This document shows, piece after piece, positions 1,140-61,995 of a stretch of 64,000 bases of DNA. Numbering within the stretch: position 1 is the first letter of the stretch; every line of letters begins with the position of its first letter. The notes beneath the pieces are model-generated. The model was not told the origin of the DNA. It did no database searches and saw only the letters and a program-made list of their open reading frames with translations. The DNA is from Stegostoma tigrinum (lineage: Eukaryota): positions 58,947,909 through 59,011,908 of the forward strand of contig NC_081355.1 of the NCBI RefSeq assembly GCF_030684315.1, read 5' to 3'. A program made the translations under genes and the position numbers.

Positions 1140-1167
1140 GACGTTTCGGGCCTAGACCCTTCATCAG
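1140..1167 (-). ncRNA. Minimal type I hammerhead-ribozyme-like motif, intact core
   Basis: Reverse complement reads CTGATGA a GGG tctagg CCC GAAA CG TC; stem III is the palindrome ACGU with no loop; stem I is only 2 bp. Confidence 0.65.
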
Positions 1168-1391
1168 AGAGGGGGATGGGGGGAGGGAACTGGAATAAAT
1201 AGGGAGAGAAGGGGAGGCGGACCGAAGATGGAGAGTAAAGAAGATAGGTGGAGAGAGTGTAGGTGGGGAGGTAGGGAGGGGATAGGTCAGTCCAGGGGAG
1301 ACGGACAGGTCAGGGAGGTGGGATGAGGTTAGTAGGTAGCTGGGGGTGCGGCTTGGGGTGGGAGGAAGGGATGGGTGAGAGGAAGAACCGG

Positions 1392-2261
1392 TTAGGGAGG
1401 CAGAGACAGGTTGGACTGGTTTTGGGATGCAGTGGGTGGGGGGGAAGAGCTGGGCTGGTTGTGTGGTGCAGTGGGGGGAGGGGATGAACTGGGCTGGTTT
1501 AGGGATGCAGTAGGGGAAGGGGAGATTTTGAAACTGGTGAAGTCCACATTGATACCATATGGCTGCAGGGTTCCCAGGCGGAATATGAGTTGCTGTTCCT
1601 GCAACCTTCGGGTGGCATCATTGTGGCAGTGCAGGAGGCCCATGATGGACATGTCATCAAGAGAATGGGAGGGGGAGTGGAAATGGTTTGCGACTGGGAG
1701 GTGCAGTTGTTTGTTGCGAACTGAGCAGAGGTGTTCTGCAAAGCGGTCCCCAAGCCTCCGCTTGGTTTCCCCAATGTAGAGGAAGCCGCACCGGGTACAG
1801 TGGATGCAGTATACCACATTGGCAGATGTGCAGGTGAACCTCTGCTTGATGTGGAATGTCATCTTGGGGCCTGGGATGGGGGTGAGGGAGGAGGTGTGGG
1901 GACAAGTGTAGCATTTCCTGCGGTTGCAGGGGAAGGTGCCGGGTGTGGTGGGGTTGGAGGGCAGTGTGGAGCGAACAAGGGAGTCATGGAGAGAGTGGTC
2001 TCTCCGGAAAGCAGACAGGGGAGGGGATGGAAAAATGTCTTGGGTGGTGGGGTCGGATTGTAAATGGCGGAAGTGTCGGAGGATAATGCGTTGTATCCGG
2101 AGGTTGGTAGGGTGGTGTGTGAGAACGAGGGGGATCCTCTTGGGGCGGTTGTGGCGGGGGCGGGGTGTGAGGGATGTGTCGCGGGAAATGCGGGAGACGT
2201 GGTCAAGGGCGTTCTCGATCACCGTGGGGGGAAAGTTGCGGTCCTTAAAGAACTTGGACAT
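1392..2261 (-). CDS. PLE ORF C-terminal part: RT thumb/linker plus GIY-YIG endonuclease (fragment)
   Basis: 289-aa ORF with Cys linker CNRRKCYTC (Neptune hallmark), VVYCIHCTRCGFLYIGET, FAEHL..ANHF (CCHH) and EQQLIFRLGTLQPYGIN. Confidence 0.9.
   Translation of the reverse strand: MSKFFKDRNFPPTVIENALDHVSRISRDTSLTPRPRHNRPKRIPLVLTHHPTNLRIQRIILRHFRHLQSDPTTQDIFPSPPLSAFRRDHSLHDSLVRSTLPSNPTTPGTFPCNRRKCYTCPHTSSLTPIPGPKMTFHIKQRFTCTSANVVYCIHCTRCGFLYIGETKRRLGDRFAEHLCSVRNKQLHLPVANHFHSPSHSLDDMSIMGLLHCHNDATRRLQEQQLIFRLGTLQPYGINVDFTSFKISPSPTASLNQPSSSPPPTAPHNQPSSSPPPTASQNQSNLSLPP
1416..1516. repeat. 39-bp tandem repeat (about 2.6 units) in the PLE ORF C-terminus
   Basis: Units start at 1416, 1455 and 1494 ('ctggtt..gatgcagt..gggg'); encodes PTAxxNQPSSSPP repeats. 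Confidence 0.8.
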
Positions 2262-2615
2262 CTGGGATGTGCGGGAGTGGAATGTCTTATCGTGGGAGCA
2301 GATGCGGCGGAGGCGGAGGAATTGGCTTACCTTAAACCTATTCTCTACTTTTGGACTCCCCTAACCTGGGAAAAAGACCTTGGCTATTCATCCTATCCAT
2401 ACCCCCCATGATTTTATAAATTTCTATAAAGTCACCCCTCAGCCTCTGATACTTCAGGGAAAAATGCTCCAGTCCTTATGACTCAAATGGTAGCCTTCTT
2501 AAAGGATTTTAACTTTCCTTTGAATACAACTTCCAGTACAGATGAAAAAGAAAAGTGTGTTTTAATGTCTTTCGTGTGGATGCATCAACTTCAGATAAGC
2601 TGAATTTAGTGGAGG

Positions 2616-4685
2616 AGTCCCAAACCATCCACAACCTCATCACCTCTGGTGACCTCCCATCCATAGCCTACAACCTCATTATTCCTCAACCCCGCAACAC
2701 CCGCTTCTATCTCCTTCCCAAAATCCACAAACCGGACTGCCTTGGTCGACCCATTGTCTCCACCTGCACCTGCTCCGTCGAACTTATCTCCACCTATCTC
2801 AACTCCATTTTCTCCCCCTTGACCCAGGAACTCCCTACCTACATCTGTAATACCACCCACGCCCTCCACCTCCTCCAAAATTTCCAATTCCCTGGCCTCC
2901 AACACCTCATCTTTACCATGGACATCCAGTCCCTATATACCTGCATTCCCCATGCAGATGGCCTAAAGGCCCTCTGCTTCTCCTGTCCCACAGGCCCAAA
3001 CAGTCCCCCTCCACGGACACCCTCAACCACTTAGCCGAACTCATCCTCACCCTCAACAACTTCTCTTTCAATTCCTCCCATTTCCTACAGACAAAGGGGG
3101 TGGCCATGGGTACCCGCATGGGCCCAAGCTATGCCTGCCTCTTTGTAGGGCATGTGGAACAATCCCTCTTCTGTAGCTACACTGGCACTAAACCCCACCT
3201 CTTCCTCCGTTACTTTTAAAAACTGTATTGACGCCACATGCTCCTACGAGGAGCTCGAACAGTTCATCCACTTCACCAACACCTTCCACCCCAAGCTTAA
3301 GTTCACCTGGACCATCTCTGATACCTCTCTCTCCATCGTGGACCTCTCTATTTCCATCTCTGGCAACCAGCTGGAAACCGATATCCATTTCAAGCCCACT
3401 GACTCCCACAGCTACCTAGAATACACCTCCCCCCACCCACGTTCCTGCAATAATGCTATGCCCCATTCCCAATTCCTTCGCCTCTGCCGCATCTGCTCCC
3501 AGGATGAGGCATTCCACTCCTGTACATCTCAGATGTCCTTGTTTTTCAAGGACCACAATTTCCCCTGCAGAGTGGTTGAGAACGCCTTCGACCGTCTCTC
3601 CCGCATTTCCCGCAATGCATCCTTCACACCCCCTCCCCACAATAACAACCAAAACAGAATCCCCCTCATCCTTACATACCATCCCACCAACCTCCAGATC
3701 CAACGCATCATCCTCCACACTTCCACCACCTGCAATCCGACCCCACCACCAAAGACAATTTTCCTCCCCACCCTTATCTGCTTTCTGGAGGGACCACTCT
3801 CTCCGGGACTCCTTTGTCTACTCCACACTCCCCTCCAGCCCCACCACACCTGGTACTTTTCCCTGCAACCACAGGAAGTGCTACACTTGCCCCTACACCT
3901 CCTCCCTCACCTCCATCCCAGGCTCCAAGAAGATTTTCCACATCAAGCAGAGGTTCACTTGCACATCTGCTAATGTGGTACACTGCATCCACTGTACCCA
4001 TTGTGGACTCTCTACATTGGGGAAACCAAGTGGAAGCTTGGGGACCACTTTGCAAAACACCTCCGCTCAGTTTGCGCGAAACAACTGCACCTCCCAGTTG
4101 CGAACCATTTCAACTCCCCCTCCCATTCCTTAGATGACTTGTCCATTCTGAGCCTCCTGCAGTGCCACAATGATGCCACCTGAAGGTTGCAGAAACAGCA
4201 ACTCATATGCTGCTTGGGAACCCCGCAGCCCAATGATATCGATGTGGACTTCACAAGCTTCAAAATCTCGCCTCCTCCTTCTGCATCCCAAAACCAGCCC
4301 AGCTTGTCCCCGCTTCCCTAACCTGTCCTTCCTCCCACCTATACCCTCTTCCCACCTTAAGCCCCACCCCCATCTCCTACCTACTGTCCTCATCCTGCCC
4401 CCTTGACCTGTCCATCCTCCCTGGACTGACCTATCTCCTCCCTAACTCCCCACCTACACTCACCTTTACTGGCTCCATCCCCACCTCTTTGACCTGTCTG
4501 TCTCCTCTCCATCTATCTCCTCCTCCATCCATCTCCTATCCACCTCCCTGTCTATCTCTATTTATTTCAGAACCCCCTTCCCTCCCCCATTTCTGAAGAA
4601 GGGTCTCGGCCCAAAACGCCAGCCTCCCTGCTCTTCTGATGCTGCTTGGCCTGCTGTATTCTCCCAGCTCTACACCTTGTTATCT
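2616..4685 (+). mobile_element. Penelope-like element (Neptune-type, subfamily A2), 5'-truncated, frameshifted RT plus GIY-YIG
   Basis: RT motifs FYLLPKIHK, GRPIVS, MDIQSLYTCIP, QTKGVAMGTRMGPSYA; linker CNHRKCYTC; LYIGETK. Flanked by a 16-bp direct repeat ctgaatttagtggagg (2600-2615, 4686-4701). Decayed hammerhead motif at 4593-4620. Confidence 0.93.
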
Positions 4686-4724
4686 CTGAATTTAGTGGAG
4701 GCTAGCTTCTTAAAGTTGCTTGAG

Positions 4725-5590
4725 TATTGATGAGAAAAACAGACATTCTGTCAAAGATAATCAATCAGATCATTTCTTGCTGTATATTGCACAAACACAT
4801 GAATGGGCCTTATGCTGAAACCTTCAATTCTGAAAAACTAGTTTACCTGAAGTTACCCTTTAGCTGTTTCACACTGCTGTTATACAATAGCAAAAGAAGA
4901 TATTCTGCCAATCACAACAATTAATACTGTGTTATTTGAGTTTTAATGCCCTTGTAATGGCAGGTTCGTATGTTATACTTCACAACAATTGGCGGGTTGC
5001 ATCAAAATGCATGTTCTTTCAGCTGTTTACAACAGGCAGAGTTTAGACAGTATTTAACCAGCCCATGCTTGCAAACTGACAAGCATTTTGTCCAATGTTA
5101 GATGTGATTCCACGAATGGAAAGCACTTATAGAACAATCTCAATGTGCTGAGATTTTTTTCTAACAACCAAGTTAAGATTATCAGTCAAGCTTGCAATGT
5201 GACTCACTTACCTGAATGAGTAGCTACATATAATCAAATGCAGGACCTTGTCCTCTATAAATAGAAAGTAAATGTTGAGGCATTACACTTTTTTAATAAA
5301 ACAAGAGCATGGGGCACAACAGTTCTTTGGTGCCTTCCCATGGCAATGACCTGACCAATCAAATATGACTTACCATTTTTGAATTTAAACAAAAGCTTGG
5401 GGAATAACTGTTCTCAGGGTACATTCTGCATATCATGATAACAACTCAACCTTTCAGAGTATACTTGCCAGCCAATCAGCATGCTTTTCTTAAGCTGTTC
5501 CTGTGAAGTTTGTTATTATTGCCCCTATCCTGACAAATGCAGGATGCAAAGCTTCAATAGTTTGGCCTTTTTTCACTAATATTTTAGATC
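4725..5590 (+). mobile_element. Old, degraded PLE (Penelope/Poseidon-type), linker plus GIY-YIG plus 3' UTR
   Basis: Remnants 'NGP..EKLVYLKLP', a GIY-YIG-like 'VLFEF*CPC' segment and 'ATYNQMQDLVL'; the 3' UTR with catggcaatg/ccaatc resembles 27600-27890. Confidence 0.55.
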
Positions 5591-5835
5591 CATAATGCTA
5601 AGTAACTATTAACATAGAATTTTGTCAAGTACTGTGTACAAACCCTCAGTGAATTGCAATTTGTTTAAATTGTACCTTTGACCACTTATACATGGTGCAT
5701 TCTGAACTGGTGTATTGGTTTAAGTGGAGGCAGACAGTCCAGATCCCTACCATGACTGTTGGACTGCCTTTGTTTTGTTTGCTGGGCCTCAGAAGCTCTT
5801 GGAGGATCGTCAAAGGCTGCTTCACCAGCACCTAC

Positions 5836-5975
5836 AGCGGGAGCATTTAAGGCTGAGATAGATAATTGATCAATAGGGGAGGCAAGGGTTATGGGGAAAA
5901 CACAGGAAATTGGATGTAAGGAATGTTGGATCAGCCATAATCCAATTGAATGGAAAAGCCCATATAGGGGAGGCA
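5836..5975 (+). mobile_element. CR1 3' end fragment
   Basis: 'atttaaggctgagatagat...gggttatgggga...gatcagccat..ttgaatgg', the same 3' UTR as 62620-62780. Confidence 0.55.
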
Positions 5976-6582
5976 ATGGCGTAGTGTTATTTCCCTGCTA
6001 TCAGTGTCTGCTCATGCTCACTTGTAGATTGAATAAGCAAGTGCAAACCGCTCTAAATGTCTAACTAAGGTCCCCAAAGTACAAGGTGTGTGCATGTTCA
6101 TGGCTGTATGTTCTGTCCTGGTTCACCATCCAAAGGAATGAGCTCCTTTGAAGAATTGTTCTGATTACACTTGCTGTACGTGTAATGGTCTTTGAAGACA
6201 AATGAAAGCAGCATGTATTAGTTAAGGCAAAATAATAATCATCATACTCAATCTTCTGGTACTTCAGGCATTGAAATGAAATATGTATAAGAGGAATTTG
6301 TAAATCTGTCACCAACTATCTGCAGGCTCCTTGAAGCTCTGTTACAAATCAAAGGGGACACTGATGTGCCACTTAGCTGGAGGGCCTGTCCTCTGTGGCC
6401 AGACATGCTTGTGCTTGGCCACCTCCAATCTTTTCTCTCCCCCTAAAATGTTATGCTGTCTTCTGCTACAAGAAGTGATCAAGAGATCCAATGAGTTAGT
6501 TAACATGAGGTATCCATTCAATGCATGCTGTTTAAATTGGTGAGGCTGTCTCAGAGATAGGTACATCACACTGCATAAGGAT

Positions 6583-6818
6583 TGTGAAATAACTCCACAG
6601 AGGCTGGTATCCCGTCATCAAGTCATCCTTTATTTACACATGGAAAGTCCCTGACACCGACCTGGATCTCTCAGGGCCAGCTCTGAGAGTGAATAGAACC
6701 TCTGACATTCCTGCCTATATCTGTCAGAAAGGGCTTCCTGACTGGACCAGATTTATAACCCCAATCAGGGAATTCATTCTGTGAGGCCCACATGGCTGAC
6801 CAAGTTACAATCAATGCA
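6583..6818 (-). mobile_element. Probable solo LTR
   Basis: About 235 bp bounded by TG...CA; AATAAA on the minus strand; resembles shark Gypsy LTRs as I recall them; no clean TSD. Confidence 0.4.
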
Positions 6819-8339
6819 GATTGGAGTGAGTGGGAACTGTAGATAGGTAACTGAGAAAATAATGAAGTGCACAGAAAGTGAAGGCCAAGTGAATTTTTGT
6901 TGCATACTGCTCATGGGCCGGTAGATATCATGCATTCAGACATCATGCATTTCTGTTTAGGAGGCTGACATCTGGGGCAAAATCTATGTTTAACCTGTCT
7001 ACCAATAGTCAGAAGTCCAGATCAGGGATTGAAAAAATGGCACCTCTTCCACTTGACCATCTAATCAATGTGTTAGGTATTTCTGGACTATCCACTAAAT
7101 TCCACCTAGTTTGAACCATTTGATTGCAGGCTTATGCTTTCAATGGTCTTGTAATGCACCCAAAATTGTGAAGAAACAATGGTAACTGATTATGATTTGA
7201 TTGCTGTTAGAGTGCGACACTGTTGCTCCCTGTGGAAATAATTGGCAAATGAAATGGCCAAGTATTTTTTGGAAGATGATGGACATGAAATATTTTACTT
7301 ACGTTTGAAATCCCAAATATAAAAAAACACTGGAGTGCAATCTGTTTTCTTTTATTGTTACTTTATAAAGAAAATCCATGTCATTCTCCTACACTTCACA
7401 GATACAAAACATACAATGGTAGAATAACATAATTTTATTATGATTTTATTCATTGAGCGAACAGCTTTTCAAGAACATATGATTGAGAAGAATAAGTAAT
7501 GTAGTTGTTGATAGGAGAGCATATATTTGGCAAAATAAGCATAAAATATCAGCCATTCTTAGCATTATTTCATTAGTAAATGAAGCTTTCTTCAAAGCAT
7601 ATTGTATTCATTGCCAGTATTGCTTGCATGAGTGAATATTTTAGCCAATTAAATTGACAGTAACCTGAATTAAGGTGCTGCAGGTAACTCTGCAATCCTT
7701 GTCTTGTGCAACATAAATGTCCCATGTACAATGCATGCTATAATGGGTTATTGAGAACACTTGTCCGTCATAGGTATGGAATAAGATTGTGTTCTGTGAA
7801 TGCCGTATGTCTTTGGCTCAAGCCAGCTGGTTTTTTTTATATTTTCAGTGACCCTTTTTCCTTTGGTTCTCGATGAAACAAAGTTCAATTGAAATATGCT
7901 TTTTGCCCTCTGAGACCAAACCTAAAAAGAATATGGACCTATTTAGAAATTCACTTCTTAAAAATATTGTAAAAGAAGTAGTTTTCACAGACTTTATAAA
8001 AGGTCTTGATGGGGACTTTTTATTAGAAACCTGAGTAATTTGGAGTTGCTAAAAAGCAAAATTGGAATAATTCTTTCAAACCTTCAGGCTATAGTTTCTG
8101 GCTAAAGTGTCCAATTTCTTTGTAGCTTACTCTGAAGAATATTAACATTGAAATTAAACTAAATTAAGAAGTACTGAGAAATGTATTTCATGTATTAGTC
8201 TTAGAGCAATTGTGCTGATTCTAGAAAATAATCTGAAATACTTAAAACAAATAAGTCAATTCTTCCATGACGATAGTGGAGGGTTTTCAGGTGAATTTTC
8301 ATCAGTTGGTGCCCCACAACAGATTTTTAGGATCTATTA

Positions 8340-9850: not shown

Positions 9851-10103
9851 AGAAGTGGAAATCTTTCATTCCTACAGTTTTTTTTGTTCTTTAGACAATT
9901 TGTATCTCTACTGCCATTGTCCTTTAATCCCATGGATTTTCATTTTACTAATAAGTTTATTAGGTGGCCCAAATCAAGTGCCTTTTGCAAATCTGTACAA
10001 ACAACATCAGTCACATTATCCTCAATTTACTGCATCAAAGAGCTCTATCAAATTAGTGAAACATAAATTGCCTTTAACAAATGTGCTGACTGTTGTTGGT
10101 TGG

Positions 10104-10393
10104 CTGGGTAACATCATCAGTGCAGCCTCCGCTGAAGCGCTGTTGTGTTTTCTCGCTTGTTATTTGAACTTGACCCCATATATACCCATCTGCGAAGGAA
10201 AACCGGACGTGAGGTAATCCAGCTCAATGGACTCCAGAGTTTAAAAGCCAGGTGGGAAAACACAACGGCACTTCAGCGGAGGCTAAACTGAGGATATTAC
10301 CTGGCAGGGTAATGAAATGCCTGCGGAACAACGACGAACCAGCTCAGCAAGCTAACCATCCACAACCCGAGCTAGAAATCTACTCCAGCACCT
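10104..10393 (+). mobile_element. PLE 3' end (Poseidon-like family) with inverted duplicated arm and hammerhead-like motif
   Basis: Inverted repeat 10104-10170 / 10238-10305; spacer reads ELDPIYTHLRRKTG (PLE EN C-terminus-like); CTGAGGA t attacc-tggcag-ggtaat GAAA at 10288-10317. Confidence 0.7.
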
Positions 10394-20221: not shown

Positions 20222-20892
20222 CAATAATTGCTGGGAATCACAGGTGGTCAGTCAGCATCCATGGAGAGAAAGCAAGCTAATGTTTTGAGTCTAGATGAGT
20301 CTTCATCAGAACTGGAGTAAAGTGTGGAGGGGGCAGCATTTATGCAATAGTGGGGCGGTGGGGTGGAGATGCAGTTTGGAGTGCTGGGGGAGAAAGAATG
20401 CTGATAGAGCAGATTAAGTGATCTGAATGTGAGAATGGCAGAACTACGGTGTGTCGACCTGCCAGACTGGGAAGAACAGTCAGTCCCATTGGTGTTGGAG
20501 GAAGGAGAGAGAGGATACGGTGACAGGAAATGTGTCAAGCAAAGCTAAAAGAAAGGAAAGGAATGAGTTCACAATCTTGAAGGTGATGAACTGAATATTG
20601 AGCCTGGAAGGTTGTAGAGTGCCTAGTTTGAAGATGAGATGTTGTTCCTCCAGTTTTCACTGTGAATTGCTGGACCATTGTAGCATGCTGAGGACAGATA
20701 AGTGGGTAGTGAGCAAAACGCTGTGTTAAAATGATCGGTCATAGGAAGGTCTGGGCATGCTTGTACACAGACCTAGAGGTGTTCTGCAAAATAGTCACAC
20801 AGTCCGTGTTTCGTTTCGCTGACCTGCTGTGATCTCCAGCACTTTTTGCTTTCAGTACAGATTCCAGCATCTGCAGTAATTTGCACCTACCT
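20222..20892 (-). mobile_element. PLE family B: GIY-YIG C-terminus and 3' UTR on minus strand, plus inverted tail (20818-20892)
   Basis: Minus strand reads ETKHGLCDYFAEHL..LPMTDHFN..LEEQHLIFKLGTLQPSRLNI; hammerhead-like motif at about 20275-20312; 20229-20255 is an inverted repeat of 20818-20841. Confidence 0.8.
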
Positions 20893-26489: not shown

Positions 26490-27362
26490 CATAGATAGTA
26501 GGAACTGCAGATGCTGGAAAATCCAAGATAACAAGGTGTTGTGCCAGATGAACACAGCAGGCCAAGCAGCATCTTAGGAGCAGGAAAGCTGACGTTTTGG
26601 GCCTAGACCCTTCATCAGAAATGGGGGAGGGGAAGAAGGTTCTGAAATAAATAGGGAGACGGGGAGGCGGATTGAAGATAGATAGAGAAGATACACTCAG
26701 CACTTTTCCCTGCAACCGCAGGAAGTGCTATACCTGCCCCCACACCTACCCCCTCAACCCCATCCCAGGCCCCAAGAAGACTTTCCACATCAAGCAGATG
26801 TTCACCTGCACATCTGCTAATGTGGTATACTGCATCCGCTGTACCCATTGTGGCCTCCCCTACATCGGGGAAACCAAGCAGAGGCTTGGGGACCACTTTG
26901 CAGAACACCTACACTCAGTTTGCAATAAACAGCTGCACCTCCCAGTCACGAACTATTTCAACTCCCCCTCCCATTCCTCAGATGACATGTACATCCTGGG
27001 CCTCCTGCAGTGCCACAACAATGCCACCCGAAGGTTGTAGGAACAGCAACTCATATTCCGCTTGGGAACCCTGCAGCCCAATAGTATCAATGTGGATTTC
27101 ACAAGCTTCAAAATCTCCCCTCCCGCCATCACATCCCAAAATCTGCCAAACTCGTCTCCACCTCCCTAACCTGTTCTTACTCTCACCTATCCCCTCCTCC
27201 CACCTCAATCCTCACCCCCATTTCCTACCTACTAACCTCATCCTGCCCCCTTGACCTGTCCATCCTCCCTGGGCTGACCTATCCCCTCCCCACCTACACT
27301 CCCCTCTACTGGCTCCATCTGCACCACTTTAACTTGTCTGTCTCCTCTCCACTTATCTTCTC
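26490..27362. mobile_element. PLE subfamily A2 with internal inversion: 3' end on minus strand (26490-26690), GIY-YIG on plus strand (26693-27362)
   Basis: ORF 26672-27040: TFPCNRRKCYTC..VVYCIRCTHCGLPYIGETK with a premature stop; hammerhead-like motif at 26591-26618 (-). Confidence 0.9.
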
Positions 27363-28994: not shown

Positions 28995-29597
28995 AACTTA
29001 AAAATATATCATTTATGTAATTCCCCTCATAACCTCAGGATGTCTCAAAGTGTTTCACAGCCAATTAAGTCCCTTTGAACCATAGTTAATGTTGTAATGT
29101 TGTAATATAACGCAACATGGCAGCACACTGCAGGACTCCAGAAAGAACATCGAAATAAATGACCATTTTATGTGTTGACTGGAGGGGTAAATGTTGACCA
29201 GGTCTCACTAAAAAATATTCTGCATTTCTTTAAATAGTGAGTAACATTCTAAAATTTCACTGAAGAGAGCCACTGAAGATCAGTTTAACATCTCATCCGA
29301 AAAACAGTGCAAAATCAGAAATTGCGGGAAGAGCTGAGCAGGACAGAGAGCATCTGTGGAGGGAAAGCTGAGTTGATGTTTTGGGCCCAGTGACACATCT
29401 TTGGAACTGTTCTGAATTTTTACAGAAATTTCTGATTTTATTTCTGATTTCCAGTATTCTCAGATCTTTTTGATTTTTTTTGCTCAGTTTGAAGAACAAT
29501 ACAACTCTCCTTTAGTGCCAGTCCAAATTATCTGCTGAAATCTCAGGAGTGGGACCTGAACCCACAAATTTCTGACATTGTACTTAGAGTGCTACCT
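28995..29597 (-). mobile_element. DeuSINE-like SINE interrupted by a PLE-terminus insertion
   Basis: Reverse tRNA head 'gggacctgaacccac..ttctgac..gagtgctacc' at 29550-29597; core 'gtttaacatctcatccgaaa'. Confidence 0.6.
29311..29480. mobile_element. PLE family C terminal fold-back fragment
   Basis: 'aaaatcagaaattgc' versus 'aaatttctgatttt' inverted, followed by a PLE-like tail 'tttccagtattctcag'; related to 43245-43335. Confidence 0.55.
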
Positions 29598-34628: not shown

Positions 34629-34632
<4 letters not shown>

Positions 34633-42939: not shown

Positions 42940-43422
42940 GATTTGTCTATAGTGCCTCATAACCTCCAACCCAGTGCGTTTCAGAGCTACAACATTTCTG
43001 AAATCACTGAACTGCCAATAAGGTACCTTTGAAATGTAGTCACTGATGAACTACAGTAAACCCAGCTGTCAATTTGTACAGAAAGCTCTCACAAGCAACA
43101 AGCAGACAGTTAATCCTTAATAAATGTTAATAACGATGCTTGAGGGTGAAATATTTGTCAAGATGTTGAAGAGAACATTCTAGCTCCTCTTCCTGATATG
43201 GTGGTGAATTTCTTCAGGCCCCACACAAGAGTAAGGATGGGTTACAAAACCAGAAATTGGTGGAAAAATTCAGCAGGTCTGGGAGCATGTTAAGAGAGAA
43301 AGCAGATGTTTTGGGTCCAGGGACTCCCTCAAAATTGCACTGAACTGCTAACCTAGATTTGTGTGTTAAGTTCTGTTTCTGAACTTCGACTCAGAAGCAA
43401 GAGTGTGACTTGCTGAGCTATC
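42940..43422 (-). mobile_element. DeuSINE-like SINE with a PLE family C terminal fragment (43245-43335) inside
   Basis: 'tttgaaatgtagtcactg', reverse head 'gactcagaagcaagagtg..ctgagcta'. Confidence 0.55.
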
Positions 43423-44939: not shown

Positions 44940-46868
44940 TTAGCAGGAAAGGTTGAAGAGATGAAAGAAATTAAGAAGATTGTGGTAGAGAAATTAGTGG
45001 GATTAAAAGCTGATAAATCCCCAGAACCTGATAGTCTATCACCCCTGAGTGTTAAAGGACATGTCTGCAGGGATAATTGATGCACTGGTGATTCTCTCCC
45101 AAATTCTGTAGTTTTTGGAATGATTCCCATGGATTGAAAGGTAATGACCTCACTATTTGAGAAGGAAGCAAGAGGGAAAACAGGCAAATACAGACTGATA
45201 ATCTTACAGTGTGAGTAAGAAAAATGCTGGAATCTATTACAAAGGAAAAGATAAACAGACACCTCCCACCCCAAGCCGCACCCCCATTTCCTACCTACTA
45301 ACCTCATCCCACCCCCTTGACCTGTCCGTCCTCCGTGGACTGACCTATCTCCTCCTTACTTCCCCACCTACACTCACCTTTACTGGCTCCATCCCCGCCT
45401 CTTTAACTTGTCTGTCTGTCTCCTCTCCACCTAGCTTCCCCTCTATCCATCTTCGATCTGCCTCCCCCTCTCTCCCTATTTATTTCAGGACCCTCTCCCT
45501 GTCCCCCATTTTTGATGAAGGGTCTAGGCCCGAAATGTCAGCCTTCCTGCTCCTATGAAGCTGCTTGTGTTCATCCAGTTCTATACCTTGTTAACTTGAA
45601 TGTTAATGATGTGATTGAACATAGCATGGATTTCTGAATGGGAAATTGTGTTTGACAAATGCCTTGGGGTGTTGTTTGAAGTGTGTTGGTAACAAAATTG
45701 ATAGAGTTGATGGACGTGGTATACTTAGATCTTCAGAAAGCTTTTGATAAAATCTCCCACAGGAGACGAAAGCACGTGGGACGGGAGGTAATGTACTGGC
45801 ATGGGTTAATAGTTAGCTAACAGACAGAAAACAGCAGGAATAACAGTAGGACATTCTTACAATGGCAGGCTGAGACTAGTAGAATACCATAAAGATCAGT
45901 GTTTGGGCCCCGCAGTTCACCATAAATGTCAATGTTTTGGAGATGGGGACCAACTATAAAATCTCCAAATTTGCAGATGATACAAAACTAAGCAGGAATG
46001 TGTTTTACGAGGAAGATGTAAAGTGATTTCAGGAAGATTTGGGCAGGTTTTGTGAATAGACAAGAACGTGGCATGTGGAACATAATGCCGAAAAATGTGA
46101 GTTTATCCACTTTGGGTTCGGAGATGTGCAGAGTATTTCTTAAACGATAAGAGGTTGGGAATATAGATGTACAAAGCGACCTAGATGTCTTTGTTGATAA
46201 CTCACTCATGGCTAACATGCCAGCTATTAGGGAGACTAATGAAATGTTAGCCTTTATTGCAAAGGGATTTGCCTCCAGGATGAGTGAAGTTTTGCTTCAA
46301 ATATGTAGGAGATTAGTTAGACTGCACCTGGAGTACTTTATGCAGGTTTGCTCTCCTTTTCTCAGAAAAGACACTATTGCATACAGGAAGTACAATAATG
46401 GTTCATCAGACTTGTTCCTGGGATGACAGGCATGTCCTATGAAGAGAGATTGTGAAAAATGGGACAGTTTTCTCTAGACTTTCGAAGAATAAGAAGTGAC
46501 CTCATTGAAAACCACTGATTATCTCTTAAAGGGATAATCAGTGTGGATGCAAGTAAGATGTTTTCCCTGGTTGAGGAGTGAGGACCAGAAGACACAATTT
46601 AAAATAAGGGGGTGCCACTTTGCTCTGAGATGAGAACTTTTTTTATATATGGAGAGTTGTGAATCTTTGGAATTCTCTATCACAGAGAACCGTGGAGGCT
46701 GAGTCTTTGAGTATATTTGAGGTAGGGATTGATAGATTTCTGATTATTCATGGAATTCAGGGTAATGGGTATAGAATGGGTAAAAGGCATTTAAGAGCTT
46801 GACCGTATTAAATGGTAGGACAGGATCAATGGGGCAGAATGGCCCCACCTCTGATTCCATGTTCCTTC
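44940..46868 (+). mobile_element. CR1 LINE ORF2 RT region and 3' UTR, degraded
   Basis: LKADKSPEPD, MDVVYLDLQKAFDK, ISKFADDTKL, MLAFIAKG..LVRLHLEY; CR1 3' end near 46860. Confidence 0.88.
45259..45592 (+). mobile_element. PLE A2 3' UTR fragment inserted in CR1
   Basis: Matches 4345-4685; hammerhead-like TTGATGA..CGAAATGTC at 45512-45539. Confidence 0.88.
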
Positions 46869-47837: not shown

Positions 47838-48006
47838 GATAGTATCAGAGATAATGGGAACTGCAGATGCTGGAGAATTCCAAGATAATAAAATGTGAGG
47901 CTGGATGAACACAGCAGGCCAAGCAGCATCTCAGGAGCACAAAAGCTTTTGTGCTCCTGAGATGCTGCTTGGCCTGCTGTGTTCATCCAGCCTCACATTT
48001 TATTAT
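47838..48006. mobile_element. PLE family A fold-back mini-insertion containing a perfect 122-bp palindrome
   Basis: Arms 47885-47945 / 47946-48006; 14-bp direct repeat atagttgaatccaa at 47824-47837 and 48005-48018. Confidence 0.92.
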
Positions 48007-48064
48007 AGTTGAATCCAAACTGATTCAAAATGAACTTCCAATTACATCACTGTACCATTACTTG

Positions 48065-52700: not shown

Positions 52701-55700
52701 CTTATTCTTTCCAAGCTTTTTTTTTAGATAGTATGATTGCATTCTCAAATAAATAACTACAACTATAATCTAAGGCATTTCATTTCAGTTACATGGCTGA
52801 TAATACGATATTCTTATTAAAATTTTCATGGCACGATATAATTTTATGTTCATTATCATACCTAAATATTCATACTGTAACTTTGAATATAACTGCAAAT
52901 ACTCTCCCTTTCATCTGGATATTTCTAAGTTATGGACAGATCCTTATTAAATTTGGGAAAGGGGCCCCCAAGTAGAATATAGTAAGGTGCCAAAGGAGTT
53001 TAAATTAGCACACAGTAAATCCTTATGAAGGTAACTTGCAGTTTGTGGTTTTGAGATGGGCAAACTTTTAAACTTATTTTACTATAACTGTAATACACAG
53101 TTTACGGCACCGTTCATTTTCTTCTTATTTCCATCAAACAGCTTGCTAGATGCCTACAACTGTAAGGGTTTAGCCAGGCATCCAGAATTAGCAACACTAT
53201 TTATCAAATGATGACTAGAAAATGAATATATAAGAAACACTTACCTTAGAAATGGAGGCATCTCATTAATAATACAATGATTCTTTATGCAATATTGAAG
53301 AAGTTTGCATTAGTTCACCCATCATAAAGTTACTGGATTTTCTCCACAAAACACACATTATCCACTATATAAATATTGCGCAGATATGTCCCAGGGGTTT
53401 GTGATGAAAGTCAAATGACAGAAGAGGTAAGAAGTCACATTTAAAAATTTCACACAGGGAGTGACAAATGATTGGAATGCACAGCCTCAAGGTGATTGAA
53501 GTCAGAAACATCAGTTAAATTAATTGAAGAAATAAGATAAATTTAAATTATCTGCACTGATATAAGTTCAAATCCTGTTAATTCTTAAGTTGCTAATGCG
53601 CAAAATGCGGGATTTGTATCACACTGTTTATTTTATAATTATAATCTAAAATAGGATTAGAGATTATATAGTGTGTACACGTGTATATGTGTCTTTATGA
53701 TAAATGCTATTTGGCAGCTATAATCTGGTAGAATAGAGCAATAAAAGGTTACAGTCTAGATCTGACTGCCATAGTCGGAAGGGGACTGTATTGGGAACTG
53801 AGGAGAGGTACTAAATCCCAACTCAAATTTGGAAATTTAAAACTGCTGGCATACCTAGAATGAAGGCTGAACTGGAATTCACATACACTTCAGACTAAAT
53901 CAGGGAGCTACATATGGGTGATGGTGATCCCAAGGAGTCTAGTAGAGGCAGTGCTACAAAGCTACATTGGTTGGCCTGAAAATGTTTGATGCAGTGATTC
54001 ATGATCTCCTGTTGTCATTCTTGATTTTGAACATTTTCTTTTAATGTATTGAAAACATTTGCTAACATTCATCTATTTGAGTATCAAATCTACTCTTGTG
54101 TCCTTAAAGCTAAAATCTAAAAGTAAGCTTTGCATTTTGTTATTTATAACTGACATGTTTTCAGAGTTGTTTTTGATTATTTTTAATTACTTTTTAGTAA
54201 AATTAGAAATGTTCATTAAATAGAATTATGTTCCAGCAAGCACATTCCAAAAGCTTACTCATTCAAATATGTTGGATTCAATTTATCTTTAAATTTTATC
54301 CCTCTATTGCACAGAGGCTTGATGGACTAAATAGCCCATTTCTGTGCTATAACATTCTATTAAATTATAACAATTATGGATTAGTTAACAACATGCTGGT
54401 AGAGTCAACAATCAGCACTGTAAAAATGCCATTAAAAACAGTTTGTTGCAGACAATAAGTAATAAATATGGGAAAATGTATTTTGGTGTTACAATTCAGT
54501 GTGTATGTATTGATAGATACTGTCTATCTCCCTTTCTCAGCCCTCCATTAGAATCACAACCACAACTTCTGTCAATATTTTTTCTTTTAACCTATCCTTC
54601 TGACATTATTGCCAAGATCAGGCAAGTCTTATGTTGAAAAATGAAGGAATGAGCCCGCATTCCTTCAGTGCATAACACAGGAGCTTATACTTGGTTATGC
54701 TCACTATTCTTACATAGATCATGTTACAATTTTGAATTTTTTTTATCTTTCCCTGGAATCAATATCACAGGCTACTCGAATAAACAAACTTCTTTTCTCA
54801 TGTGCGATAGCATTTGCTTTTATTTGACTGATATCAAGGTAAATCTATCCAGACCTGAGTTAGAAGGAGACTCTTCGTCACTTATAAGATCATAATCATC
54901 CTACCATTGCAATGTGCTAGAAATCATCCCATGTAGGATTGCAGCTGAGGCTAAAAAAATGCTCAGTTCATTTCTTAAACAATGAAGAAGTCAGTACATG
55001 AATAGTAGCTGAAAGTTTCTGCTGAGATTATGATATCTGATACAGAGGTGGCATTGAGTGATGTTTCGACAGTAGGCATAAATAATCTTTAATAGATTAG
55101 GCACATGCTTGGAAGCTCACCTCAGTCGGATATCAAGCCATAGTAGTGAACTAAATGGTTTAACCTGAGGCAAAGACAAGGAAAACGGATAGAATTAGTG
55201 AACAGGGATCAAAAAATGGCTTCAGTGATCCCAAGAGTTATAGGTGGAAGACTCTGTTCATCTAATACTGGATGTTGAACACATTTGATGATTTAACTCT
55301 TTTGTGGAAATCCACCATTATGGAAACATTGGTCCCTTATGTTTTCTGCTTCCAAAAAGATTACAATCTACATGCACTTCTGCCCAAGATGTAATAATAA
55401 ATGCGGCGACATGGACAATATCTTATTGGGCACAAATCCAGAGCTGTGATTTCAAATTCCATCATGGCAGCTTGAGAATTCGACTGTGTACTTGTGAGCA
55501 TTATTGAAGTATTAATGTATATTCTAGTTAGCTTTTCAAATCCTTTAGGGATGGGAATGTGCCAGCTAACCGGGATGCACCTGCATCTGACGCCAGGTCC
55601 CCCACCAATGCAGTTTCACAATTATCAATTCCAAACATTTTGAAAGTTTTCCCTGATATATATCTCAATTCAGGGGCAATACAGTTACTCATCCACTTTT

Positions 55701-55769
55701 AGCAATTTCTTAACAGTATATGGAGAAAACTGATACAGTTGAAAACTGACTTCTATAATAATGGAGCCC

Positions 55770-56325
55770 TCAGGAGGTGGCTGAGGTGGGACATTCACTC
55801 AGCATTTCTAACTCGTGATAGTAACAAAGACTTCAGCCTTCTATTTTGTGCCTGTGCAGGACTCTGCCATTTTTGAAGATACGTAACTGGGTGTGACAGG
55901 ACTGTAGAGCCCTCATCTGTTCCATTGGCTGTGGGATCTTTTAGCTCTGTCCACAATATGCTGCTTCTACTATTTAATATGTTATGTAGTTGCGTGTCGC
56001 AACATTATCAGGTTGGCACCTCAGGTTTCTTTATACCTGTTATTGCTCCTAGCATACTGCTGCACACTCCTCATCAAATCAAGGTTGGTCCCTGGCTTCT
56101 TGGTAATGGCATAGTGGATCAATACGTTATGGATTGTGGAGAAAACTGTTCTGCTGCAGCCGATGATGGCCCACAGAATCGAAGGATATCCAGCTTTGAG
56201 CTGCTAGATCTTATCTGATTCAATTCCATGTGGTTTGCCGCACAGTATCGTGAAGGACCTCGTCAGTGTGAAGGTAGAACTTCATCACCACGAGGACTAT
56301 GCAGTGGTCACACTGACCTACGTTG
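55770..56325 (-). mobile_element. LINE fragment (EN-RT linker region)
   Basis: Degenerate reverse-strand similarity continuing the 10820-11130 type sequence. Confidence 0.4.
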
Positions 56326-56834
56326 TCCTACTAGACACAACTGTGGTTTGCTCTTTGACTTTCAGACCTCCCTTTTTCTCTTTGAGGATTCCATTGCTGA
56401 TCTCTTCCACTGTAAATTCCTTGTGCATTTTGACATTTTATTTGCAGTGTGGGCCCCCACTCATAATTCTGGTTTGGCAATTCCAGATCCAGGACATCTT
56501 TGATTTCTAATGGCCTGTATGCTCATCATTATTATAATAATTATTATTGTGACAGATACACACTGCCCTTTCTCAGTCTTCCAAGCTAATGTAGCTGGCA
56601 ATTTTCTTAAGGCCTTCCAAGTTGACTCTGCTTGTGTGTCTGAGAAAATGTACAGATAAATGCTACATAAATGTGTAGCTGTTTGCACCCAATCCCCATG
56701 GCAGCATTACACCTAGGATATCCCAGACACAGATTTAGATGAATTATCTATTACCTTGAAAGCAATCCTTTGTTTGTGTGACTCACATGAATACTTTATA
56801 TCTGTAATGGAGATAATGGCCCTCTTAGTGGACT

Positions 56835-57053
56835 GAGAGATAATGGGAACTGCAGATGCTAGGGAATCCAAGATAACAAAGTGTGTAGCTGGATAAACAC
56901 AGCAGGCCAAGCAGCATCTCAGGAGCACAAAAGCTGACGTTTCGGGCCTAGACCCTTCATCCTCTCTGATGAAGGATCTAGGCCTGAAACATCAACTTTT
57001 GTGCTCCTGAGATGCTGCTTGGCCTGCTGTGTTCATCCAGCTACACACTTTGT
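56835..57053. mobile_element. PLE family A fold-back mini-element, 219 bp
   Basis: 86-bp arms 56876-56961 / 56968-57053 with a 6-nt loop; 14-bp TSD cctcttagtggact at 56821-56834 and 57054-57067. Confidence 0.93.
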
Positions 57054-57144
57054 CCTCTTAGTGGACTTACTGGTTTCATCAAGAAATCCAATGTTCACGA
57101 GTTGCTTTTACACTCTTTGATATGGAAGCTTAAATGAATTTTAT

Positions 57145-58352
57145 CTGGAAGAGTCCCAAATTGGAATGTAGTTAATGTAACACTAATATTCAAAATAAGA
57201 AGGGTGAGCAACTATGAGCTGAGAGTCTAACATCCACCACAGGGCAATTACTAGAATATATAATTAAGGAAAGTATAGCAGGATGCTTCCAAATCTTAAT
57301 GTTACCAGGCAAAGTCCACATGGTTTTGTGAAAGGCAAGATGTGCATAACTAATTTATTTGAGCGTTTTAAGGAAGTACCAAGGTGGAAATAGAATGACC
57401 TGTGGAAGTGGTCTATTTGGATTTCCAAAAGACATTTCACATTGCACAACCTCAAAAGTTGCTACACAATTTAAGAGGTCTTAGTGTAAAGGATAACAAA
57501 TAAACATGGAATAAAGAATTTATTAGATAACAGAAGGCAGATAAAAGGACAAATGGGTTATTCCATAGGTTGGAAAGCAGCTACTAGTGCTACAGCTCTT
57601 AGTACAAAGGCCTGTAAATTTATATCAATGACTTGGATGAAGGTACCAGATCTATGGTCGCTGAGTTTGCTGGTGAAACAAAAAAGGTATGAAAGTAAAT
57701 TGCCAAGAGGAGGTTCAGAGGCTGGAAAAAATGATATAAACAGGTTAAGTGAGTGGAATGAATTTGACAGATTGCTTTTTTTTACAGTTGTTCATGGGAT
57801 GTGGATGTTGCTGGCTAGGCCAGCATTTATTGCAAGTCCCTAATTACCAGAGGGCAGTTAAGAATCAAACACATTACAGTAGAACTGGAGTCACAGATAG
57901 ACCAGATAAAGTAATGCAAAGATGTCCTTCCCTAAAGGACATTAGCAAATCAGATATGTTTTTACAATAATTGACAGCAGTTAACTATTAGGTTAGCCTT
58001 TTATTCTAAAATTTTATTGAATTCAAATTTCACCATCTAACATGTGGGATTTGAACCCATATCCCTGGAACATTAGTCTGGGGCTCTGGATTACTTGTCC
58101 TGTGGCATTATCACCTACTAAAATGTGCACTTGTCCTCTTTTGCAGGAAGAATAGAAAAGCAGTATATTAAATGGAGGAGGTTTGCAGGTATTGATGATA
58201 CAGAGGGAATGCTGGCTAGCCAGTGACATCCATATTCCATGAATGAATAAATTAAGAAAAAATTGATTAGGATATAATTGGAATGTTGGTGTTTATTGTT
58301 AGGAGAATGGAATATTAAAATGCGGAGGTTTTACTGCAGCTATACAGAGCCT
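57145..58352 (+). mobile_element. CR1 ORF2 remnant, interrupted; continues at 60056-60330 and 62071-62098
   Basis: HGFVKGKMCITNLFE, VYLDFQK, DINRLSEW motifs. Confidence 0.75.
57775..58115 (-). mobile_element. tRNA-derived SINE (family of 18050-18390)
   Basis: Reverse tail 'catgggatgtggatgttgctggctaggccagcatttattg'; B box ggatttgaaccc. Confidence 0.8.
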
Positions 58353-58379
58353 TTCAAGGTAGCCTTTGAGATAGGCACC

Positions 58380-59038
58380 AATGTTGAGCAGAAACTGATA
58401 GCTAAGTTCTGTACCCAAGAAGACGACCTCAACCATGATCTTGGGCTCATGTCGTGCTACATGTAACCCTCACCATACTGTTCTTTGTCTGTAAAATCTT
58501 CCTTACTGTTCCAGTTTAACGCCATCTCCTTGATAACTTGTAATGATCTTGCTACCTTTTGTCAGTTTGTATAGTTTTGGATTATTTCATACTTTGTTTT
58601 GACCCTCAACATGTGACTCTTACATGTATCATGTTATTCCAGTCATTTAGTTTGTTTTTAGCACCATCTTATTTTACAATTTTGTAATTATCTCTCTACC
58701 TCAATTAATTGGAGCAGAGGTCATCCCTTCACTTACTATTCAGCTGTTAACACTTTACTCACACCATTTGACACTTTTGATCACCTGCAGATTTGTTGTT
58801 CAGCTTGTTAACACTACACTCACTCCAATTGTACTATCTTTTGACATTCTTAATTACCTGAAATTATCTTACAATGATGTCTCCACCTATAAATTCTGTG
58901 CCTGTGTACTTCTCTCCACTTCACCCGATGAAGGAGCAGCACTCCAAAAGCTTGTGATTTCAAATAAACCTGTTCGACTATTACCTGGTGTCATGTGACT
59001 TCCAACTTCATCCACTCCAGTCCAACATCAACACTTTC
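58380..59038 (+). mobile_element. PLE family D 3' end
   Basis: EQKLIAKFCTQEDDLNHDLGLMSCYM* (PLE GIY-YIG C-terminal E..I...GLN motif); hammerhead-like motif at 58921-58957. Confidence 0.72.
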
Positions 59039-59039
59039 A

Positions 59040-60055
59040 CACAAAGGAAGATGGTTGGAGCTGTTGGAGGTCAACGACCTCAACTGCAGGACTCTAGAGG
59101 AGCTCCTCAGGGAACAGTTCTATGCCAAACCATCTTGAGCTGCTTCATCAATGACCTTCCCTCATCATAAGATCAGAAATATTAGTTGATGATTGCATGA
59201 TGTTCATCACCATTCCTGACTCAGATACTGAGGTAGACCATATCCTAATGCAGCTGGACAATATTCAAGCTTGGGTTGACAAATGGCAAATGATATTCTC
59301 ACTACACAAGCACCAGGCAATGATCATCTCCAAATAAAGAGAATATAAGTATCACCCTTGACATTTAATGTCTAAACCATCACTGAATTTCTCCTCCATC
59401 AACATCTTAGTGGTTACTATTGAATAGAAACTGAACTGGACTAATTATATAAATGCTGTGGTTACAAGAGCATATCAGAGACTAGGAATCCTGCAGCTAG
59501 TAACCCACCTCCTGACTCCTCAAAATCTGCCCACAACTTACAAGACACAAGATCGCATTGTGACTGAATACTTCCCATTTACCTGGATGTGTGCAGCTCC
59601 AACAAGATTCAAGAAGCTTGACGTCATTCAGGACAAAGCAGCCCACATTATTGGTACGACATCCACAAATATCCACTCCCTCCACCACTCAAACGCTAAC
59701 AGCAGTGTGTACCATCCATGCGATGCACGGCAAAAATTCACCAAGGCTCCTTAGACAGTACCCTCCAAACTCATGATCACCAGCATCCAGAAGGACTGCA
59801 CATCCATGGAAACACCACCAGCTGGAAGATCCCCCTCTAAGTTATTCACCAATCTGATTTGGAAATATATTGCTGTTCCTTCAGTTCTCATTGGGTCAAA
59901 ATCCAGGAACTCCCTCCCTACAGCATTATGGGTATACCTAAACCAAGTGGAATTCAGCAGTTCAAGAAGGCAGCTCACAATCACGTTCTCAAGGGCAACT
60001 AGGGATGGGTAATAAATTCTGGGCTAGCCAGCAATGCCCACATCCCACATGAAAG
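59040..60055 (+). mobile_element. CR1/L2-superfamily LINE, RT 3' half plus 3' UTR
   Basis: GAPQGTVL..SCFINDLPS; QRLGIL..EY..W..KLDVIQDKAA; tail gggcaactagggatggg..gcccacatccc. Confidence 0.8.
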
Positions 60056-60906
60056 CTAGAATCGTGGGCACAGCTCAAGAATAAGAGGTCTACCTTTCAG
60101 AAGGTGATGATGAAGGTGATTTTCTCAGAAGGTCGTTAGTATATGAAGTTCTCTTGCTCTGAAAAAACAATTGAGACTGATTCATGAATTTGTTCAAGGC
60201 AGGCTTAGATAGACTTTTAATAGACAAGGCAGTCAAGAGTTCTGATTGAGGCACATGGGGAAGTGGAGTTAAGGCCACTATCAGATGCCAGGATCCTGTT
60301 GAAAGACAAAGCTGGCTCAAAGGCTAAATATGTGATAATGGGAACTGCAGATGCTGGAGAATCCAAGATAATAAGGTGTGAAGCTGGATGAACACAGCAG
60401 GCCAAGCAGCATCTCAGGAGCACAAAAGCTGATGCTTCTCTTTCGATTCCTCCTACTTCCTACAGACAAAGGGGTTGGCCTTGGGCACCTGCATGGGCCC
60501 CAGCTATGCCTACCTCTTTGTAGGTTACGTGGAACCATCCTTCTTCCGCACCTACACAGGCCCCAAACCCCACCTCTTCCACCATTACATTGACTGTATC
60601 GGCGCTGCCTCTTGCTCCCCATAGGAGGTCGAACAGTTCATCCATTTCACCAACTCCTTCCACCCCAACCTTCAGTTCACTTGGGCCATCTCCAGCACAT
60701 CCCGCGCCTTCCTGGACCTCTCAGTCTCCATCTCAGGCAACCAGCTTGTAACTGATGTCCATTTCAAGCCCACCGACTCCCACAGTTACCTAGAGTACAC
60801 CTGCTCCCACCCACCCTCCTGCAAAAATTCCATCCCCTATTCCCAATTCCTCCACCTCCGCCACATCTGCTCCCACGATGAGACATTCCACTTCCGCACA
60901 TCCCAG

Positions 60907-61737
60907 ATGTCCAAGTTCTTCAAGGACCGCAACTTTCCCCCCACAGTGGTCGAGAACGCCCTTGACCGCGTCTCCCACATTTCCCACAACACATCCCTCA
61001 CACCCCGCCCCTGCCAAAACCGCCCAAAGAGGATCCCCCTCGTTCTCACACACCACTCCACCAACCTCTGGATACAATGCATCATCCTCCGACACTTCCG
61101 CCATCTACAATCCGACCCCACCACCCAAGACATTTTTCCATTCCCACCCTTGTCTTCCTTCCGGAGAGACCACTCTCTCCGCGACTCCCTTGTTCGCTCC
61201 ACACTGCCCTCCAACTCCACCACACCCAGCACCTTCCCCTGCAACTGCAGGAAATACTACACTTGCCCCCACACGTCCTCCCTCACCCCTATCCCAGGCC
61301 CCAAGATGACTTTCCACATTAAGCAGAGGTTCACCTGCACATCTGCCAATGTGGTATACTGCATCCATTGTACCCAGTGTGGCTTCCTCTACATTGGGGA
61401 AACCAAGTGGAGGCTTGGGGACCACTTTGCAGAACACCTCTGCTCGGTGCGCAATAAACAACTACACCTCCCAGTCGCGAACCAGTTCACCTCCCCCTCC
61501 CATTCTTTAGATGACATGTCCATCATGGGCCTCCTGCAGTGCCACAATGATGCCACCCGAAGGTTGCAGGAACAGCAACTCATATTCCGCTTGGGAACCC
61601 TGCAGCCCAATGGTATCGATGTGGACTTCACAAGCTTCAAAATCTCCCCTTCCCCCACCACATCCCAAAGCCAGCCCAGTTCGTCCCCTACCCCCACTGC
61701 ATCCCAAAACCAGCCCAGCCTGTCTCTGCCTCCCTAA
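60907..61737 (+). CDS. PLE ORF C-terminal part: linker plus GIY-YIG endonuclease (fragment)
   Basis: 276 aa; VVYCIHCTQCGFLYIGET; nearly identical to 1392-2261. Confidence 0.88.
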   Translation: MSKFFKDRNFPPTVVENALDRVSHISHNTSLTPRPCQNRPKRIPLVLTHHSTNLWIQCIILRHFRHLQSDPTTQDIFPFPPLSSFRRDHSLRDSLVRSTLPSNSTTPSTFPCNCRKYYTCPHTSSLTPIPGPKMTFHIKQRFTCTSANVVYCIHCTQCGFLYIGETKWRLGDHFAEHLCSVRNKQLHLPVANQFTSPSHSLDDMSIMGLLQCHNDATRRLQEQQLIFRLGTLQPNGIDVDFTSFKISPSPTTSQSQPSSSPTPTASQNQPSLSLPP

Positions 61738-61967
61738 CCTGTTCTTCCTCTCTCCTATCTCTTCCTCCCACCCCAAGCCGCACCACCATTTCCTACCTAC
61801 TAACCTCATCCCACCTCCTTGACCTGTCTGTCTTCCCTGGACTGACCTATCCCCTCCCTACCTCCCCACCTACACTCTCCTCTCCACCTATCTTCTTTTC
61901 TCTCCATCTTCGGTCCACCTCCCCCTCTCTCCCTATTTATTCCAGAACCCTCACCCCATCCCCCTCT

Positions 61968-61995
61968 CTGATGAAGGGTCTAGGCCCGAAACGTC
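61968..61995 (+). ncRNA. Minimal type I hammerhead-ribozyme-like motif, intact core
   Basis: CTGATGA a GGGtctaggCCC GAAA CG TC; predicted cleavage after 61995. Confidence 0.65.

Follow-up and report, generated by a model that had tools for sequence, protein, structure and literature searches.

The 64,000-nucleotide (nt) stretch of Stegostoma tigrinum analysed here (assembly GCF_030684315.1, contig NC_081355.1, positions 58,947,909 to 59,011,908, forward strand; hereafter the window) carries a recurrent motif which, judged by its sequence, is the minimal type I hammerhead ribozyme of the terminal repeats of Penelope-like elements (PLEs), mostly in decayed copies. That the motifs of the window are the known minimal hammerheads of PLEs is almost certain. 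Quite probably, the observations as a whole are best explained if PLEs of at least three lineages carry these hammerheads in their terminal repeats, if the RNA of the Neptune-type families starts at helix I, and if cleavage is slow and dependent on dimerisation and protein, the template being mostly uncut. The motif copies in the window are listed here, with positions counted from its first letter.

61968..61995, plus strand: family A core, C3 to C17, intact, with a helix I of 2 base pairs (bp; CU/AG), a 4-bp helix II and an ACGU helix III; predicted cut after 61995
1140..1167, minus strand: family A minimal hammerhead core, intact
4593..4620, plus strand: older family A core, decayed (G12A, U16.1C), ending a longer reverse transcriptase (RT)/GIY-YIG remnant at 2546-4133
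26591..26618, minus strand: family A core, decayed (G12A)
45512..45539, plus strand: family A core, decayed (C3U, C15.2U)
56966..56993, plus strand: family A core, decayed (helix II mismatch, G16.2A), the plus arm of a back-to-back stub pair
10288..10321, plus strand: family C (Poseidon-type) core with a decayed helix III and a 6-bp helix II
20279..20309, minus strand: family B core (G12A, G16.2A) with 4-bp helix I arms at 20310-20313 and 20275-20278
58925..58953, plus strand: family D core (U4C, G12A) with a 4-bp helix I and an AGCU helix III
29369..29410, minus strand: family E, decayed copy
43299..43338, minus strand: family E, second decayed copy

The original prediction had placed motifs of families A, B, C and D in this window, and all four were found where it had put them; the minus strand of the 1140-1167 copy had gone unstated. 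Family E, a fifth family related to A and B, had not been listed; E and a younger C-like family, C2, were added by clustering relaxed descriptor matches. There are no same-strand pairs of intact motifs in the window, and its copies are therefore unable to dimerise in cis.

The likely start of the RNA is suggested by the 5′ ends of the copies. These ends were mapped with tail-only queries, so that 5′ extent was unselected, and an end was called where the match to the family reference stops. One copy was counted per insertion event (a segmental duplicate, L242, was dropped), and copies were left out if their tail identity was below 75-85% or if they lay close to the edge of a locus. The samples consisted of an even sample plus the window for A, B and E, and of the best tail matches for D, C and C2. 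Ends lying 1-8 nt before C3 outnumbered those lying 9-40 nt before it by 22 to 0 in young A (87 events), 15 to 8 in old A (62), 17 to 0 in E (43) and 10 to 2 in D (26). Binomial p values for these four sets, relative to an evenly spread distribution, range from 4e-16 to 5e-6. When truncation was simulated as uniform, 10-12 ends fell in the nearer interval and 29-44 in the farther one, and simulated uncut copies gave no false ends; an artefact of the end caller was rejected by this simulation. Relative to the cut, the modal stub ends lie at -32/-31 in A, -34/-33 in E and -36/-35 in D. A pile-up just before the motif rather than at the cut site suggests that the RNA likely starts with the motif and is often copied uncut.

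Stubs and tails of the window that bear on the ends are given below.

56831..57061, both strands: back-to-back family A stub pair, the plus arm starting 5 nt before C3 and the minus arm 2 nt after C3
47848..48015, both strands: palindromic family A tail pair, the arms starting at the predicted cut site and overlapping at the AGCT palindrome 47944-47947
61996..62058, plus strand: family A tail to the first 3′-end cluster (+62 to +67)
1041..1139, minus strand: family A tail to the second 3′-end cluster (+97 to +99)

Efficient cleavage could instead set the template's 5′ end, as hepatitis delta virus-like ribozymes do for R2 elements. Such a role was proposed in PMC4209133, and the cut site is indeed where a few stubs begin, the palindrome at 47848-48015 among them. 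However, in all seven sets only a small number of events end within 2 nt of the predicted cut (young A 2/87, old A 3/62, E 4/43, B 1/7, D 2/26, C 0/31, C2 1/31), the cut-site cases of young A overlap at an AGCT palindrome favouring fold-back, and the motif upstream of the cut is present, in whole or in part, in most short stubs. This explanation is thus highly improbable, and copy 5′ ends defined by the cut site were rejected for the rarity of ends there. A second cut-site fold-back like that at 47848-48015 was seen at locus L133; cut templates or palindrome-driven fold-back could underlie both.

At the other end of the copies, family A 3′ ends fall at +62 to +67 in 50/113 and at +97 to +99 in 47/113; the clusters lie at +56 to +59 and +88 to +98 in D, and at +43 to +47 and +81 to +87 in C. 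Two such clusters match the tail signature that PMC11167929 links to the start sites of RT. The suggestion of the original prediction that the motif may serve as an RT-binding signal finds no support as worded, since copy 3′ ends here lie 41-99 nt downstream of the cut site, and in the anole the insertion region and RT start sites are likewise downstream of the motif (PMC11167929).

A promoter signature accompanies the pile-up. In young A, old A, B, D and E alike, the best TATAWA hexamer of the 140 nt that precede C3 (joint-best in the case of B) stands 29-31 nt ahead of the predicted start, and predicted starts coincide with modal stub ends in A, E and D. With TATA spacing and the YYANWYY initiator consensus taken from PMC4422821, the predicted start matches the initiator in old A, D and E. 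An AT-rich hexamer in C and C2 would place the start about 16 nt before C3, where few ends are found nearby. The predicted start of young A coincides with a TCT-like motif, and that of B has neither an initiator nor a TCT-like match. The corresponding hexamers of the window are as follows.

61934..61939, plus strand: TATA-like hexamer TATTTA, 30 nt before the modal family A stub 5′ end (predicted start 61964)
1196..1201, minus strand: TATA-like hexamer of the copy at 1140
20339..20344, minus strand: CATAAA of family B, 31 nt before the first base of helix I
58888..58893, plus strand: TATAAA of family D, 30 nt before the A (58918) of a YYANWYY match, which is the modal D stub 5′ end

The pile-up at helix I might also arise from a longer RNA, if RT stopped or switched template at an upstream pyrimidine tract or structure, or from antisense self-priming. 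Families A, B, D and E have a pyrimidine-rich sequence just upstream and C, which is without a pile-up, does not; many stubs are head-to-head pairs, and antisense self-priming has been proposed in PMC3846280. Against this stands the sharpness of the edge in young A and E, which have no ends in the farther interval although pyrimidine tracts extend >100 nt upstream, and its position at canonical TATA spacing both in lineage A/B/E and in D. Moreover, a hairpin that blocked RT would be expected to do so at its own 3′ foot, close to the cut site, and not on its 5′ side. We regard an origin of this kind as unlikely.

A start of transcription at helix I in the Neptune-type families, as read from these sequences, appears fairly likely. 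RNA polymerase II would start 4-7 nt before C3, in the 5′ arm of helix I and about 30 nt past the TATA-like box, within the upstream terminal repeat. The RNA would thus begin with one hammerhead and meet a second after the open reading frame (ORF), and the two could pair through helix III. RT would begin at either of the two tail sites: a start in the 3′ repeat would give ordinary 5′-truncated copies, and one in the 5′ repeat would run off at the uncut end of the RNA, giving many short stubs that begin at helix I. Cleavage would probably be infrequent or late, with the help of protein, and would not normally set the 5′ end of the copy. A wider version, suggested by the same sequences and held only tentatively, with the case not quite evenly balanced, is that the messenger RNA begins with the ribozyme, that tens of thousands of stubs are uncut run-off complementary DNAs, and that an inactive hairpin in the first 34 nt of family A forms a protein-gated, cap-removing switch to template or circle. 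The regulated cap-removing switch is the more speculative part of it.

Majority sequences of the 30 best genomic matches per family, together with per-position counts from tail-selected copies, restore the complete core in each: all bases of C3UGANGA9, G12AAA and U16.1 H17 stand in the family majorities. These majorities give helix III as ACGU in A, B, C and E and as AGCU in D (inner pair GC in 27/33 D copies); the loop-less palindrome described in the original prediction is retained across families. H17 is C in A and C, and U in B and D. The extra base between positions 9 and 10.1 is A in A, B and D (69/69 young A and 33/33 D copies) and U in C (26/28 C2 copies), and the 10.1-11.1 pair is GC or CpG-decayed GU in 13/13 hand-picked copies and 33/33 D copies. 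Helix I is CU/AG in A (2 bp; often UU/AR in older A), AGCU/AGCU in B, UCAC/GUGA in D, AGUU/AACU in E, and GCA/UGC, extendable to 5 bp, in C. Helix II has 4-6 bp and opens with G-C in all families. N7 is free to vary (U, A, G and C all occur), and because it is often A, G or C, the idea of a conserved upstream ORF from an AUG in the core was rejected.

Pairing was assessed in 13 copies of A, B, C and E. Paired cells made up 91% of 130 (100% in helix II, 79% in helix I), 7 of the 10 helix pairs vary on both sides, and the observed paired fraction was reached by 0/500 shuffles; controls with slid partners were at most 37% paired. Family D was left out of this alignment, in which the aligner offset its rows by one column. 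In a separate count of 33 copies, the pairs of its helices I and II are each kept by 25-33, with letters unlike those of the other families. A covariance model built from A, B, C and E recovered those families plus two E copies in the window. The original claim that the core is kept while the stems change between families is borne out by these compensated helices I and II.

Such conservation bears on whether the motif still cleaves. In these lineages it might instead have lost cleavage and persist at the RNA 5′ end in a structural, promoter-proximal or protein-binding role. The first 37 nt of family A are predicted to fold 84% into an inactive hairpin that pairs CUGAUG with CGUCAG and buries the core (z -1.8 only), a hairpin not favoured in a 97-nt context. 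Copies that end at the cut site are few, insertion in vitro went ahead unimpaired with catalytic mutants (PMC11167929), and Naiad PLEs proliferate without canonical hammerheads (PMC8557442). The retention of the catalytic positions, of a non-G H17, of a free N7 and of compensated helices I and II across lineages with dissimilar tails is, however, what selection on catalysis predicts, and weak cleavage, as dimers or with protein, is known from related PLE motifs (PMC4209133, PMC11167929). A motif that no longer cleaves at all is for these reasons quite unlikely, and a dependence on dimerisation or protein is consistent with the folding predictions.

All four families of the original prediction are, from the coding remnants next to them, PLEs with the motif downstream of RT/GIY-YIG sequence: such remnants lie on the sense strand upstream of the B, C, C2, D and E motifs, and those of A and D in the window are listed here.

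60625..61737, plus strand: family A ORF remnant, 5′-truncated, with the C-terminal part of RT, a C-x4-C-x2-C linker and a GIY-YIG nuclease; no Pfam match at E 0.01
1392..2360, minus strand: family A ORF remnant with linker and GIY-YIG (Pfam GIY-YIG for 1395-2360, E 4e-4)
58380..58470, plus strand: C-terminal end of the family D ORF, decayed

The families had been called unrelated, which holds for D and C, distinct from A and B at the DNA level, and fails for A and B themselves. The A and B tails are homologous (alignment score 60, shuffle maximum 35), as are their protein remnants (38-58% identical; 38-66% within A, B and E). Four independent origins were rejected on the ground of this tail and protein homology. 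Sequence comparison thus indicates that A, B and E are one lineage and that D and C/C2 are separate at the DNA level, which gives at least three DNA lineages. A tblastn search with the C-terminal family A remnant of the window gave zero matches in 30 D loci, and the full A protein gave one match in the same loci.

A full-length family A element (L373) has intact same-strand motifs at 1673 and 5285, about 3.6 kb apart, that flank a 1085-codon open frame with YIDD, the Cys linker and GIY-YIG. Same-strand motif pairs with broken frames were found at L371 and L372, and L374 has an open frame with the 3′ motif only. The first ATG of the long frame of family A lies 139-140 nt past the cut site. The Cys linker is present in A, B (L040, L043), D (L089) and E (L177, L127). 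A C-x(2-5)-C-x2-C linker between RT and GIY-YIG is a feature of Neptune and Nematis (PMC8557442), and by this linker A, B, D and E appear to be PLEs of Neptune/Nematis type, where D could belong to either clade. The remnants of C and C2 (L104, L307, L270) run into GIY-YIG without a Cys linker, by which these families appear to be of Penelope/Poseidon type.

Several points weigh against hammerheads that start the RNA and are still able to cleave. The pile-up is absent from C (0 ends in the nearer against 5 in the farther interval, 31 events) and C2 (1 against 3, 31 events), and family B (2 against 1 of 7 events) is not significant, with too few events for a test. The promoter motifs are short and degenerate, with several initiator matches elsewhere in the same windows, and the shared ancestry of A, B and E reduces the TATA spacing to about two independent origins. 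The 13 copies of the covariation set were hand-picked for fit to the motif and lack D, so that the result is circular, is uncorrected for relatedness and illustrates more than it proves; the covariance model, built without D, found no D motif in the window or in 23 D loci. In a nearest-neighbour model two misfolded monomers of young A are favoured over the active dimer by 17 kcal/mol, and family A may not cleave at all. The same penalty amounts to 14.5 kcal/mol in old A, 7 in E, C and C2, and 3.5 in D. The model ignores tertiary contacts of the core and Mg2+, and its energies fit either a need for help from protein, which would be greatest in A, or activity that has been lost. Finally, the Pfam matches of L373 (RVT_1, E 1.8e-5; GIY-YIG, E 0.0019) are both below the curated cut-offs.

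The motif is far from a chance occurrence. A strict descriptor matched only twice in the window, at the family A copies 1140-1167 and 61968-61995. Across 1 Mb of genomic sequence, taken as 100 stretches of 10 kb at even spacing, it matched 45 times, and not once in any of 5 dinucleotide shuffles; a descriptor tolerant of CpG-type changes raised this to 79 matches, again with 0 in the shuffles. About 41/45 strict matches are family A or older A forms, and 45 per Mb extrapolated to 3.2 Gb would amount to some 140,000 intact motifs in the genome. Intact natural copies were found for A, C, C2, D and E, and only near-intact ones for B. The Rfam comparison that had been proposed as a check did not pick up the motif: the gathering threshold of Hammerhead_1 (RF00163) was not reached in the window, a scan of the window against Rfam showed no hammerhead family at E values up to 5, and a genome-wide RF00163 search gave zero matches but its controls were equally silent. 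Rfam microRNA matches at 47906-47985 were rejected as only the palindromic family A stub.

The idea that most core losses reflect CpG decay holds for young A, where CpG transitions alone explain 24/34 damaged copies. It does not hold for old A (19/43), E (7/31), C (11/22), C2 (4/15) or D (2/13).

Some further features of these families were seen in passing. A GC-rich tandem repeat of variable length lies in the N-terminal region of the A ORF, about 900 nt past the cut site (L342, L353, L354, L374), and its unit number differs among young copies. An inverted partial C copy at 10082-10170 of the window (minus strand) has helix II apparently fused to the tail, as if by internal deletion, and an inverted family B tail stub lies at 20819-20890 (plus strand), about 500 nt from the main B copy. 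Family D has an AATAAA at most 15 nt after the predicted cut (58954-58966, plus strand), a possible polyadenylation signal that is not seen in the tail majorities of A, B, E or C2. Seven C2 stubs (L257-L260, L262, L266, L280) begin 11-17 nt ahead of the cut site, and immediately before this point all share an A-rich 3′ end that resembles the tail of another retroelement, which suggests a chimeric family.

Minimal hammerhead ribozymes were reported in the fish PLEs Xena, Poseidon and Neptune by Cervera and De la Pena in 2014 (PMC4209133), with an extra base between 9 and 10.1, a G10.1-C11.1 pair and a palindromic 15.2-16.2 pair as emergent features, and with weak cleavage in multimers only. The shark motifs share with these the type I topology, the full core, the extra nucleotide, G10.1-C11.1, the loop-less palindrome and the short helix I. 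They are also alike in having many variable families per genome, mostly as single motifs in truncated copies, with a few pairs about 3 kb apart around the RT ORF. They differ in a helix II of 4-5 bp in A, B, D and E against 7-8 bp in the schistosome motifs, and in that family A joins a 2-bp helix I with no helix III insertion. The architecture is nevertheless less extreme than the original prediction held, since according to PMC4209133 the minimal motif already lacks helix III/loop 3 and D. virilis has a 2-bp helix I. No shark entry was found in the 2 of its 3 supplementary files that were searched. Dimer-cleaving PLE hammerheads (Lunse 2016/2017) are summarised in a review (PMC6765202) and may already cover motifs of the shark type.

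In the Poseidon element PAc of Anolis carolinensis (Frangieh et al. 2024, PMC11167929) hammerhead cleavage needs protein, two internal RT start sites bound a 30-40-nt tail, and uncut RNA is the main template. The two 3′-end sites in the tail are shared with PAc and match its RT start sites. The PAc ORF, however, starts inside helix II, unlike family A with its first ATG well past the cut, and A, B, D and E carry the Cys linker, unlike the PAc clade. The Penelope promoter of D. virilis is internal and TATA-less, with a 75-bp intron that follows 46 bp after the start and ends at helix I (PMC2377424), and a putative TATA plus initiator was noted in the pseudo-long terminal repeat (pLTR) of Adineta Pen2a (PMC3846280). 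A start inside the terminal repeat, as we infer here, would be common to Penelope, Pen2a and the shark elements, but unlike in Penelope it would lie at helix I itself, behind an upstream TATA-like box, and no intron is evident in family A.

Head-to-tail family A terminal repeats of three units each occur at L173:7452-8440 (plus strand; units of about 440 bp) and at L196 (minus strand; 301 bp). Each unit has an intact hammerhead, and the arrays, which could dimerise in cis, resemble the non-LTR retrozymes (bioRxiv 10.64898/2026.07.22.740005) in their short tandem pLTR-derived units. The window differs from such retrozymes in having no same-strand tandem array, its copies being single or inverted stubs.

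While the motif itself is established, comparison of the sequences suggests a fresh lead in the coincidence of copy 5′ ends and a TATA-like box at helix I in Neptune-type families. A literature search, with most subscription papers and the bioRxiv supplements outside it, found no paper in which helix I is connected with a TATA box, a start site or the 5′ ends of copies. The role of PLE hammerheads in vivo has been called unclear (PMC8557442). Should the RNA indeed begin at helix I and mostly be copied without being cut, cleavage would not serve to make 5′ ends, as it does in R2, but would more likely regulate capping, translation or circularisation. Young elements with an intact ORF, such as L373, offer a direct test system in a vertebrate genome.

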